IMG/VR virus record: IMGVR_UViG_2534681938_000039
Length of the DNA stretch: 3,657 nucleotides
Origin: a virus
Taxonomy: Duplodnaviria > Heunggongvirae > Uroviricota > Caudoviricetes
Reading direction: 5' to 3' (one strand)
Positions 1 through 3,657 of the stretch are shown one piece after another. Each line of letters begins with the position of its first letter. Positions within the stretch are counted from its first letter, which is position 1. The position numbers and the translations under genes were made by a program. The notes under the pieces were generated by a model. It was not told the origin of the DNA. It did no database searches and saw only the letters and a program-made list of their open reading frames with translations.

Positions 1-249
1 TGCCCCACGCAATTCATCAATTGCACAAACCAGCCGTTCACGTTCGACGTCGTTCATTTCTTCAAAACGCATCGTTGCGTGACGCTGTTTTAACTGCGCA
101 TGGAAGCAAACCGTTAGCCGTTCGCGTTCCATCATCTGATTATAATAATCACATGTATCCTGCCAGCGAGGGACAGCAAGATGCTTGCCAATTATCCGGC
201 GCATAGCTGCTGGCTGTTTTTCAACGAGATTGAGCGTCATCACTGTCAT
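1..249 (-). CDS. Partial early-operon protein, N-terminal 83 aa (MTVMTLNLVEKQPAAMRRIIGKHLAVPRWQDTCDYYNQ...), continuing beyond the window start. Position matches the orf78/B slot downstream of cox in P2-like phages; function not assigned.
   Basis: Hand translation of the minus strand from ATG at 249..247 gives an open frame with no stop down to position 1. A GGAGGG Shine-Dalgarno lies 7 nt upstream (about 257..262). The start overlaps the stop of the upstream small ORF (ATGA). Not in the ORF track because it is truncated by the window edge. Confidence 0.6.
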   Translation of the reverse strand, partial: MTVMTLNLVEKQPAAMRRIIGKHLAVPRWQDTCDYYNQMMERERLTVCFHAQLKQRHATMRFEEMNDVERERLVCAIDELRGA

Positions 250-416
250 TTCCAGACCCTCCGGCTTTTCAGAAAGGTCAGAGCCTTTTTTAACGGACTC
301 TGTTTTTTGGTGCGGATAATGATTCCCTTACGCCCCTTACCGTGGGTGATGGTGAAGTCAATCGCCCTGGGGCTTTCGTTACGCAATAACTGAGCAATAC
401 AACGAGGCTCATTCAT
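246..416 (-). CDS. Small basic hypothetical protein, 56 aa (MNEPRCIAQLLRNESPRAIDFTITHGKGRKGIIIRTKKQSPLKKALTFLKSRRVWK)
   Basis: ATG at 416..414 is preceded by AAGGAG about 6 nt upstream; that SD overlaps the cox stop codon. Its TGA stop (248..246) overlaps the ATG of the next gene (249..247). The ORF track starts it at an upstream GTG (440), which would overlap the cox 3' end; the ATG with SD is the more plausible start. Confidence 0.45.
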   Translation of the reverse strand: MNEPRCIAQLLRNESPRAIDFTITHGKGRKGIIIRTKKQSPLKKALTFLKSRRVWK

Positions 417-426
417 ACGGTTCTCC

Positions 427-702
427 TTAACGTGGTTCACCGAGACCTAACCACATCAACCAGCCGTCACGAATCTCTTTAGGACGGCTTTCATAAGCCA
501 GTTTTAGTCCGTTATTCCATGCCGGAAGGTATACCCAATATTCACCAGCACGCCCCGATACTGACTGAGGGTCAGTAATCTCAATAACTGGTAATTTCCC
601 TTTCTCAATCATGCCCCTTACAGCTCTTGGAGTTTTACCAATGAGTTTTGCAAACTCCTGATAAGGCACGGCATCAGTCACGCTTACAAGCTGTCTATTC
701 AT
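427..702 (-). CDS. cox: Cox-like protein of a P2-family phage (small DNA-binding excisionase / repressor of the lysogenic promoter), 91 aa
   Basis: 91-aa ORF divergent from the repressor gene and first gene of the minus-strand operon. Same length and position as P2 Cox. GGGAG SD upstream of the ATG at 702..700. Assignment rests on gene order and recalled family features, not on a search. Confidence 0.7.
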   Translation of the reverse strand: MNRQLVSVTDAVPYQEFAKLIGKTPRAVRGMIEKGKLPVIEITDPQSVSGRAGEYWVYLPAWNNGLKLAYESRPKEIRDGWLMWLGLGEPR

Positions 703-823
703 CTGCTACGATTCTCCCTTAGTGCTTCTAATGGCTCCTAATGGCTAATTATTGCCTAAAAGGATAACTCCAGAAGCACAACATTTCACACTATCAGCAA
801 GAAATTACGCAATCGGAGTAATT
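703..823. promoter_or_regulatory. Immunity switch region between divergently oriented cox and C; expected to hold the early (Pe) and repressor (Pc) promoters and the C operator
   Basis: 121-bp AT-rich intergenic region between the two start codons, containing a tandem direct repeat. In P2-family phages the two promoters and the C operators lie in this interval. Exact -35/-10 elements could not be assigned confidently by eye. Confidence 0.6.
727..746. repeat. Tandem direct repeat, 10-bp period (TCTAATGGCT / CCTAATGGCT); candidate C-repressor operator half-sites
   Basis: CTAATGGCT occurs at 728..736 and again at 738..746, a perfect 9/9 match. P2-family C repressors are known to recognise direct rather than inverted repeats. 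Confidence 0.5.
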
Positions 824-1123
824 ATGTCAATAGACGTTTCGGAGAAGTTGAAGCTAATCCGTGAATCTGAAAGGTTAAACCGTAAAGAATTCAGTGAATT
901 AACTGGTGTAGCCTACAGCTCACTTTCGAGCTATGAGAGCCGGTCAAAAAACGCTGGAGTTGAAGCCATAATGAAGGTCTTACAACATCCTAGATTTACT
1001 AAATATACTTTGTGGTTCATGACTGATCAGGTAGCTCCAGAAGCCGGGCAAATTGCGCCCGCTCTCGCACACTTTGGGCAAAACGAAACAACGTCGCCCC
1101 ACTCCGGTCAAAAGACTGGTTAA
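824..1123 (+). CDS. C: C-type immunity repressor of a P2-family phage, 99 aa, helix-turn-helix
   Basis: ATG at 824 with GGAG SD (815..818); TAA stop at 1121..1123. HTH-like segment (LNRKEFSELTGVAYSSLSSYESR). Same length and position (immediately upstream of int, same strand) as P2 C. The ORF track's 123-aa version starts at an upstream TTG (752) inside the operator region and is less likely. Confidence 0.8.
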   Translation: MSIDVSEKLKLIRESERLNRKEFSELTGVAYSSLSSYESRSKNAGVEAIMKVLQHPRFTKYTLWFMTDQVAPEAGQIAPALAHFGQNETTSPHSGQKTG

Positions 1124-1162
1124 CAATTTATCGTGAATATATTCATCACAAGTGCCTACTAT

Positions 1163-1185
1163 TGGTGGCTAAATTTCAGCCACCA
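1163..1185. other. Inverted repeat (TGGTGGCT, 7-nt loop, AGCCACCA) in the C-int intergenic region
   Basis: Perfect 8-bp arms at 1163..1170 and 1178..1185. No U-tract follows on either strand, so it does not look like a canonical intrinsic terminator. Confidence 0.3.
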
Positions 1186-1237
1186 CGAAAAAAGCGATTA
1201 GTAGTAGCAAAAAAAGTACCACTCGGAGGGTTTTCTG

Positions 1238-2251
1238 ATGGCAATCAAAAAACTCGATGATGGTCGATATGAAGTGGACATCCGCCCTACTGGACGTAAC
1301 GGAAAACGCATCCGTAGGAAGTTTGATAAGAAAAGCGAAGCTGTCGCTTTCGAAAAATACACGTTGTACAACCACCACAATAAAGAATGGCTATCAAAAC
1401 CAACAGACAAACGACGTCTGTCGGAACTGACACAGATCTGGTGGGATTTAAAGGGTAAACACGAAGAGCATGGGAAATCTAATCTTGGAAAAATTGAAAT
1501 CTTCACAAAAATAACGAATGACCCATGCGCATTTCAAATCACGAAATCCCTTATCAGCCAGTACTGCGCCACCCGAAGAAGTCAGGGTATTAAACCTTCG
1601 AGTATCAATCGTGATTTAACATGTATTAGCGGCATGTTTACAGCCCTGATTGAAGCGGAGTTATTCTTTGGTGAGCATCCTATCAGAGGGACAAAGAGGC
1701 TTAAGGAGGAAAAACCAGAAACAGGCTATCTCACACAGGAAGAAATAGCCTTACTGCTTGCAGCACTTGACGGCGACAATAAAAAGATTGCGATTCTTTG
1801 CCTAAGTACAGGAGCACGTTGGGGAGAAGCAGCTCGTTTGAAAGCAGAAAATATCATCCATAACCGCGTCACGTTTGTTAAAACGAAAACAAACAAACCA
1901 CGCACCGTCCCGATCTCAGAGGCTGTTGCCAAAATGATCGCGGATAACAAACGAGGTTTTTTATTCCCTGATGCTGATTACCCTCGCTTCAGACGAACAA
2001 TGAAAGCAATAAAACCGGATTTGCCAATGGGGCAAGCCACACATGCACTAAGGCACAGCTTTGCCACTCATTTCATGATTAATGGAGGAAGTATTATCAC
2101 GCTACAACGGATACTAGGTCACACGCGGATTGAGCAAACTATGGTTTACGCTCATTTTGCGCCAGAGTACCTTCAGGACGCCATTTCTCTTAATCCGCTA
2201 AGAGGTGGTACTGAGGCCGAGAGTGTCCACACAGTGTCCACAGTAGAGTAA
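1238..2251 (+). CDS. int: Tyrosine site-specific recombinase (phage integrase), P2 Int-like, 337 aa
   Basis: 337-aa ORF with GGAGGG SD 7 nt upstream. The C-terminal half carries the tyrosine-recombinase catalytic signature: R in TGARWGEA, H-x-x-R in HALRHSF, H in GHT and the nucleophile Y in TMVYAHF. It ends 80 bp before a P2-type att core. Confidence 0.95.
   Translation: MAIKKLDDGRYEVDIRPTGRNGKRIRRKFDKKSEAVAFEKYTLYNHHNKEWLSKPTDKRRLSELTQIWWDLKGKHEEHGKSNLGKIEIFTKITNDPCAFQITKSLISQYCATRRSQGIKPSSINRDLTCISGMFTALIEAELFFGEHPIRGTKRLKEEKPETGYLTQEEIALLLAALDGDNKKIAILCLSTGARWGEAARLKAENIIHNRVTFVKTKTNKPRTVPISEAVAKMIADNKRGFLFPDADYPRFRRTMKAIKPDLPMGQATHALRHSFATHFMINGGSIITLQRILGHTRIEQTMVYAHFAPEYLQDAISLNPLRGGTEAESVHTVSTVE
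2222..2242. promoter_or_regulatory. Tandem direct repeat AGTGTCCACA x2 (11-bp period); candidate Int arm-type binding sites overlapping the int 3' end
   Basis: Perfect 10-bp copies at 2222..2231 and 2233..2242. The reverse complement contains TGTGGACA, which I recall as the P2 Int arm-site consensus. Location in the arm next to the att core fits. Confidence 0.55.
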
Positions 2252-2330
2252 CGTTTAAGGGCTTTCAGTGGTAATTTATGCCGCTCAAACCCGCATTGTA
2301 CCGTTGAAAGCCCCTACTGGTGACACCCTA

Positions 2331-2357
2331 AATCTCCCTTACACGGGCTTATTTTTT
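2331..2357. other. P2-type phage attachment site core (27 bp)
   Basis: Reverse complement of 2331..2357 is AAAAAATAAGCCCGTGTAAGGGAGATT, which matches the 27-nt P2 att core as I recall it. It overlaps an imperfect dyad (GGGCTTAT 2345..2352 / ATAAGCCC 2362..2369). Confidence 0.7.
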
Positions 2358-2401
2358 ATGCATAAGCCCTATCCCTGATAACCGTCTTCCATTGACCACA
2401 T

Positions 2402-2443
2402 TGAACCGCCCCGGGTTTCCTGGAGAGTGTTTTATCTGTGAAC
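2402..2443. repeat. Terminal inverted repeat region of the IS element (orfB-proximal end)
   Basis: Begins with TG and reads TGAACCGCCCCGGG..., which resembles the terminal repeat I recall for IS629-type elements. The partner repeat is outside the window, so the inverted-repeat relationship cannot be confirmed here. Confidence 0.65.
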
Positions 2444-3334
2444 TCAGGCTGCCAGATCATCGTTTCCGATGGAAGCATAATAAGCTTTTTCTGCTTCTGC
2501 CGGAGGAGTATGGCCCAGCCTTCCCAGCAATCGTCGATTGTTATACCAGTCCACCCACGTTAGTGTGGCCAGTTCCACTTCTGCACGGTTTTTCCAGCTC
2601 TTACGGTGTATTACCTCCGCTTTGTAAAGACCATTGATGCTCTCAGCCATCGCGTTGTCATACGAGTCGCCTGTACTCCCTGTTGATGCCAGTAATCCGG
2701 CTTCTTTTAGTCGCTCCGTATAGGCCAGTGACACATACTGAGAGCCTTTATCGCTGTGATGGATGGTGCCAGACGGACGACGGGCCCACAACGCCTGCTC
2801 CAGCGCATCCAGCACGAATGTCGTTTCCATAGACGATGAGACCCGCCACCCCACGATGTATCCGGCAAACACATCAATGATAAACGCCACATAGACGAAG
2901 CCCTGCCATGTGCTGACGTAAGTAAAATCAGCCACCCACAGCTGGTCAGGTCGTTCTGCCACGAACTGACGGTTTACGCGGTCGCCTGCGGCAACGGCTT
3001 TCCGGCTGATGGTCGTACGGACCTTTTTACCCCGGAGAACACCGGCAAGTCCCATAACCGCCATGAGACGTGCCACTGTACATCTGGCCACCCTGATTCC
3101 TTCCCGTAACAACTGACGCCAGACTTTACGCACACCGTACACCTGATGATTTTCATCGTATACGCGCTGTATCTCTCTCTTCAGCCAGTCGTCGTGCTGC
3201 GCACGGGCACTGCGTTTATCCGGATGATGTCGCTGTTGCTGACAATGGTAATACGTTGACGGGGCAATATGCAGTTCGCTGCATACCGGTCCGACCCCGT
3301 ACTGCTCACGCAGCTTATCCAGCAGTGGCATCAT
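2444..3334 (-). CDS. IS3-family transposase OrfB (DDE / integrase-core catalytic domain), 296 aa as an independent ORF; normally expressed as an OrfAB fusion
   Basis: Carries the D, D, 35-residue, E triad typical of IS3-family transposases: D in WVADFTYV, D in [10 protein letters not shown] in [18 protein letters not shown] stop at 2444..2446. Confidence 0.95.
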
Positions 3335-3657
3335 TTTTTCCAGAGGCGGTCGAACTCCGCCTTCGCAAAATAAGCGGAAGCCTGGCGAAGGATATCGTTA
3401 CTGCGGCGCAGTTCACGATTTTCACGTTCCAGCTCTTTCAGACGCTGACGTTCAGCGCTGGTGAGCCCACCATCACCGCCCCCGGTATCCCGCTCATGCT
3501 GGCGAACCCAGACACGCAGAGTCTCCGGCGTACAGCCAATCTTTGGGGCAATGGAACAAATTGCCGCCCACTGTGAGTCATATTCATCCTGACTTTCCAG
3601 AACCATACGAATCGCCCGCTGACGGACTTCGGGGGAAAAACGAGTATTTTTAGTCAT
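3331..3657 (-). CDS. IS3-family transposase OrfA (HTH and leucine-zipper-like N-terminal part), 108 aa
   Basis: Protein [26 protein letters not shown]... with a heptad-like [20 protein letters not shown] segment. Its TGA stop (3333..3331) overlaps the OrfB ATG (3334..3332). The start codon occupies 3657..3655, the window edge. Confidence 0.95.

Follow-up and report, generated by a model that had tools for sequence, protein, structure and literature searches.

Heterobivalent tyrosine integrases place their N-terminal domain on arm sites and the remaining protein on the core of the attachment site. The arm-type sites of lambda Int (P1, P2 and P'1-P'3) follow the same heterobivalent logic as those described below, with accessory bending proteins acting in between, but they differ in consensus, number and orientation, and they do not overlap the int coding sequence. 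The int gene of lambda is retro-regulated by sib. A preprint on mv4 outlines the lambda layout. For phage P2, the Int-binding sites of the att region were reportedly footprinted by Yu and Haggard-Ljungquist in 1993. The arm-binding domain at the N-terminus of P2 Int has been described, and P2-type phages share the arm-site consensus tgTGGaCa, present in directly repeated copies that flank the core on both sides (PMC3448106). Between the core and the Int arm sites, attP contains six cox boxes facing two ways (PMC3936717).

Phages of the 186 type have the arm-site consensus tgccGCCActt (PMC3448106; Nilsson, Cardoso-Palacios and Haggard-Ljungquist 2011). Their sites are likewise directly repeated at a distance of one helical turn, next to where int ends, and, as in the P2 type, it is the N-terminal domain of the integrase, a related protein, that recognises them. 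They differ in the recognition sequence, TGGCGGCA on the coding strand, and in a more conserved, GGKMAAE-like integrase tail. A further comparison is offered by KplE1 IntS and P4 Int, whose recombinase sites overlap the 5' promoter of the integrase gene and repress its transcription (PMC2951348). As at the locus studied here, these attL sites overlap the expression unit of their own gene; here, however, it is the 3' coding end of int that is overlapped, with the arm sites away from the promoter, and the promoter serving int lies upstream of the repressor gene C. The P2 record annotates a promoter, Pc, with both C and int downstream of it, and a search for a promoter-like site in positions 2150-2450 of our sequence gave none.

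The DNA analysed, hereafter the window, is a stretch of 3,657 nucleotides from the IMG/VR virus record IMGVR_UViG_2534681938_000039. By megablast it is 96% identical to P2 (AF063097) over window 1-2358 and 99.2% identical to the prophage-derived record vB_EcoM-720R8 over window 1-2401. Between 2180 and 2358, an interval covering the 3' end of int and the 27-bp att core, the window and P2 are identical, with a coordinate offset of 594. The features on which the argument relies are the following.

1238-2251, plus strand: int, encoding a 337-aa heterobivalent tyrosine integrase (open reading frame, Pfam domains, 100% identity to P2 Int)
2217-2243, minus strand: Int-binding region of the P' arm (annotation carried over from P2, AF063097 24470-24496, with full sequence identity)
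2224-2231, minus strand: core-distal arm-type octamer TGTGGACA (matches the consensus tgTGGaCa, PMC3448106)
2235-2242, minus strand: core-proximal arm-type octamer TGTGGACA (11 bp from the core-distal copy, same orientation)
2241-2314, no strand assigned: binding region of the excisionase Cox, lying between arm sites and core (transferred from AF063097, identical sequence)
2331-2357, no strand assigned: 27-bp att core AATCTCCCTTACACGGGCTTATTTTTT with the Int core-type sites (same sequence as the attP core of P2 and as the end of cyaR)
2358-2401, no strand assigned: chromosomal (B-side) attL flank toward yegR (as in K-12 and most IMG/VR loci)
2402-3657, minus strand: insertion sequence of the IS3 family, IS1203/IS629-like (Pfam rve, HTH_21 and HTH_Tnp_1; annotated as IS1203 in E. 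coli genomes)

The int product carries the Pfam domains Int_N and Phage_integrase. It is 100% identical to the Int of P2 (AF063097), and identical also to the crystallised P2 Int chains 5c6k and 5dor of the PDB, so that a cognate P2-type heterobivalent integrase is encoded near the sites. In residues 1-66 of the protein, Pfam recognised no named arm-binding domain.

A preliminary description of the window, made from its letters alone, had pointed to a perfect tandem repeat in the last codons of int, had taken its reverse complement for the P2 arm-site consensus and had proposed that the repeat forms Int arm-type sites. All three points agree with the present analysis. The decamer AGTGTCCACA is found twice, at 2222-2231 and 2233-2242, with a start-to-start distance of 11 bp and a single C between the copies. 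Both copies lie inside the final ten codons of int (window 2221-2251, ...GAG AGT GTC CAC ACA GTG TCC ACA GTA GAG TAA), where they encode the C-terminus ...SVHTVSTVE. On the reverse complement, the octamer TGTGGACA occurs exactly at 2224-2231 and 2235-2242 and nowhere else in the window; both copies match tgTGGaCa of PMC3448106, and they stand as direct copies on the minus strand, about one helical turn (11 bp) apart. As a generic near-tandem 10-mer, the AGTGTCCACA pair is no more than mildly unusual: when the window was shuffled 1000 times with its dinucleotides preserved, 42 of the shuffles held a perfect repeat of 10 nt or longer at a spacing of 10-22. The chance expectation for a pair of exact consensus octamers 11 bp apart is about 1.7e-6 per window. 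A literature search on the bare motif TGTGGACA returned unrelated primer matches only.

The P2 record (L001 in our collection), read in the orientation of the window, gives the order int, Int P' arm, Cox, Int core/attP, IHF, Int P arm and ogr. Its protein_bind features are placed at 2811-2837 (Int P' arm), 2835-2908 (Cox), 2924-2951 (Int attP core and attP), 2950-2983 (IHF) and 2987-3014 (Int P arm). The repeat at 2222-2242 falls inside the annotated P' arm, window 2217-2243, and the stretch that the preliminary description had read as Int arm-type sites is thus the one labelled 'protein_bind Int, P' arm' in P2. The annotated P2 core maps to window 2330/2331-2357, and about 88-90 bp separate the repeat from the core at 2331-2357; arm and core are parted by the Cox region, in a sequence identical to that of P2. 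An inverted repeat, 2256-2273 and 2299-2316, lies within the Cox-binding region. The P arm of P2 consists of TGTGGACG and TGTGGTCA, with the 11-bp spacing and the orientation seen in the P' arm, and the four octamers of the two arms jointly yield TGTGGaCa.

The repeat is therefore the already known P' arm Int-binding site of P2, in identical sequence. This site was annotated, and reportedly footprinted, in P2 decades ago, and the value of the locus as a discovery is small. It provides a calibration point instead, as the call made from the sequence alone was correct.

With the P' arm of P2 (AF063097 24470-24496) the window shares the sequence, the position relative to int, the distance to the core, the core itself and the Cox region. 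It differs from P2 in that the site belongs to an integrated attL end, in its immunity region (C 65% and Cox 83% identical) and in having chromosomal DNA and an IS element where P2 has its P arm. In E. coli K-12, the gene for the small RNA CyaR ends in 27 nt, its terminator half, that equal the att core at 2331-2357 (L091 3175-3201); at this site, the target of P2-type phages is therefore the 3' end of an sRNA gene, which they rebuild at the other prophage end. In the window, the core copy is preceded by phage P' DNA and not by the 5' part of cyaR. K-12 carries a PR-X remnant (P arm, ogrK and yegZ') at the cyaR site, and the flank after the window's core is the sequence that follows PR-X in K-12, as it is in most of 80 IMG/VR loci with an identical Int. 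This shared chromosomal flank identifies the window as the int-proximal, attL-type end of an E. coli P2-type prophage at cyaR/yegR. The window diverges from P2 past the core, and the remainder of a complete attP (the P arm, the IHF site and two more arm sites) is absent from it; since the core is followed by the yegR-side flank and then by an IS, the site is an attL and not an attP.

The terminal sequence of the IS starts at about 2402, 44 bp beyond the core and directly past an arm-like octamer of the host flank. Its orfB (2444-3334) and orfA (3331-3657) are both on the minus strand, and the element runs off the window. In a search whose matches were dominated by IS copies, no complete E. coli genome in our collection showed the exact int/IS junction. 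An apparent 20-nt extension of O157:H7 IS1203 matches into the flank was considered as a shared insertion site and rejected, being a weak chance alignment inside an unrelated lambdoid prophage.

The host flank also deserves a mention of its own. The arm-like octamer TGTGGTCA occurs there as a relic at 2393-2400 on the minus strand, and the flank from 2375 to 2401 resembles the P arm of P2 (host CTGGTCACCGTCTTCCATTGACCACATCGA, P2 CTGGTCACGTCCACACATTGACCACATCGA; about 3848-3878 in L091). One arm-type octamer is intact and the other decayed, and the spacer to the core is shorter than that of P2. Its presence in K-12 and in most loci examined gives this flank the look of a relic, fixed in the chromosome, of an older P2-like arm.

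We conclude that the octamers are very probably the two P' arm-type sites of P2 Int, which would serve the bridging of arm and core together with Cox, and that their overlap with int would be incidental. Direct evidence comes from the sequence identity with P2 and its database annotation, from the match to the consensus and from conservation among relatives; binding and bridging are carried over from published work on P2. The N-terminal domain of Int would bind the two P' octamers, and its core-binding and catalytic domains would occupy the core some 90 bp away. Cox, bound to the intervening 90 bp or so, would wrap or shape the complex during excision, and the attL end would synapse with attR, leading to excision of the prophage. 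The 11-bp spacing would set both arm sites on one face of the helix, and the int open reading frame would merely happen to read through them. In the free phage, the octamers would form the P' arm of attP and serve integration. Because the window is a prophage junction without the partner P arm, its role in situ would be that of attL only, in excision.

The comparison with relatives was based on two sets: eight phages with an Int 50-80% identical to that of the window, and 80 species-level genomic loci with an Int identity of 37-90%. The int stop was taken as the first stop codon past the catalytic YAH motif. A scan of viral contigs with Int returned only loci of about 100% identity, which are informative on flanks and not on divergence. 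A P2-type pair, defined by at most 2 total mismatches and a spacing of 10-12, adjoins the int 3' end in 24 of the 80 loci, and none of 2000 shuffles reached the match quality observed for the P2-type pair in relatives. The position of the pair varies among these 24 loci: 11 have it inside the open reading frame, 4 have it spanning the stop codon, and in the other 9 it follows downstream. Pairs located in the open reading frame are read in differing frames, with tails such as SVHTVSTVE, SVHALSTGD, MSTNRPHL and MSIMRP, and conservation of the Int protein stops at ...LNPL.GG. Close relatives that keep the register of P2 conserve the 16 octamer columns at 94%, against 69% for the other 26 columns of the tail. 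Since the octamers persist inside the open reading frame, over its stop codon or beyond it, and the tail is variable, the DNA-binding constraint dominates.

The same arrangement is encountered in 186-type relatives, in which TGGCGGCA is found twice at 11 bp and lies inside the int open reading frame in 13 of 15 loci, with GGKMAAE-like tails (int 3' ends of L137, L144, L145, L155-L159 and L163-L169). By these sequence comparisons, the overlap with coding sequence is common to many members of either branch, P2-type or 186-type, yet in the P2-type branch it is incidental and readily lost or shifted in evolution. The peptide tail of Int looks largely like a by-product of the arm sites.

These data also bear on two further suggestions of the preliminary description. 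It had proposed that the same bases are constrained both by protein sequence and by DNA binding; the DNA half of this proposal stands, as the octamers are conserved as DNA, whereas the protein half is weak, the peptide tail being variable and truncated in one Int of about 80% identity. That Int could bind its own 3' end holds at the level of DNA, by the very definition of an arm site.

The truncation just mentioned occurs in Klebsiella phage Kp4847-1 (Int 79.5% identical), which has TAA in place of GAA just ahead of the octamers when compared with a K. michiganensis prophage (L083 1382-1405 against L096 about 1685-1714). The nonsense change makes Int 10 residues shorter but does not touch either octamer, so that nature has in effect truncated the tail. 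A literature search retrieved no text on a role of the C-terminal tail of P2 Int in the protein, for example in dimerisation. A study of 2005 is said to have addressed the determinants of Int dimerisation, which might involve the C-terminal region. For P2-like phages at large, the arm sites are conserved and the C-terminal tail of the integrase is often just their translation. Annotators should keep in mind that short, conserved-looking integrase tails of the 'VH.VST' or 'GGKMAAE' kind may mirror arm sites.

Besides its role in DNA, the repeat might act within the int mRNA as a target through which Int down-regulates itself post-transcriptionally, a proposal that we consider unlikely. The repeat is necessarily present in the int transcript, and PMC11789052 refers to Yu, Barreiro and Haggard-Ljungquist 1994 (J Virol 68:4220) for a viral protein that regulates itself by binding its own mRNA. 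The RNA from 2215 to 2375 folds far better than its shuffles (z = -4.9), with some bases of the second repeat paired at the foot of the main hairpin. Against a target in the message, 9 of 24 relatives have the pair beyond the stop codon, and the hairpin coincides with inverted Cox boxes and shows one compensatory pair only in 8 sequences.

This long hairpin (2259-2315, GGGCTTTCAGTGGTA ... TACCGTTGAAAGCCC) follows the int stop directly, within the Cox-binding region. It is kept in relatives with at least 76% Int identity, where the single compensatory pair takes the forms GC, AU and GU. The hairpin may be an RNA structure or a set of inverted Cox boxes, between which this one pair does not discriminate. 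A second hairpin of the fold is a perfect 8-bp stem, GGGCTTAT / ATAAGCCC, at 2348-2370, which spans the junction of core and host DNA.

The placement of arm sites in or against the last int codons, in phages of the P2 type as well as those of the 186 type, might itself have been selected, with the occupancy of the sites by Int and Cox, or the binding of Int to RNA, feeding back on the completion or translation of the int message. We regard this as quite unlikely; if true, the supply of integrase would be coupled to the state of the att site. A more specific version, in which Int and Cox at the P' arm block RNA polymerase in the last int codons and cause non-stop transcripts and a negative feedback on Int, appears very improbable. 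Its geometry would be suitable, since the sites precede the end of the stop codon by 9-27 nt and the Cox region begins at 2241, but the overlap is not conserved and some relatives have their sites past the stop codon. Moreover, the known autoregulation of integrases through an att overlap works at promoters (PMC2951348), and positions 2150-2450 hold no promoter-like site.

A repeat bound by Cox or IHF instead of Int would be in keeping with the annotated Cox region, which abuts the repeat with a 3-bp overlap. The P2 annotation nevertheless gives 2217-2243 to Int and places IHF beyond the core, on its opposite side, and the P arm, which has no annotated Cox site, contains octamers of the same type; such an assignment is extremely improbable. 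Finally, although about 4% of shuffled windows hold some perfect near-tandem 10-mer, the view that the repeat arose as a duplication by chance, or is one of the peptide (SVHT/VST), and plays no part in DNA binding is effectively refuted by the two exact consensus matches at the annotated position of an identical phage sequence and, in the comparative data, by conservation in relatives across reading frames and outside the open reading frame.

The immunity region completes the comparison with P2. A C-type repressor gene (824-1123), whose product is 65% identical to P2 C, lies upstream of int, and the divergently transcribed gene at 427-702 encodes a Cox protein (Pfam Phage_Cox) 83% identical to that of P2. 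With Int and the att site being those of P2 and Cox being 83% identical, a variant Cox is paired here with P2-type Cox boxes. The module is mosaic, the differences of C and Cox (427-1123) from their P2 counterparts being located in the N-terminal, DNA-binding halves. In the intergenic switch region between cox and C, a direct repeat GCTTCTAATG / GCTCCTAATG with a period of 10 occupies 724-743 and includes CTAATGG three times; it may be an operator or a cox box set of this immunity type.
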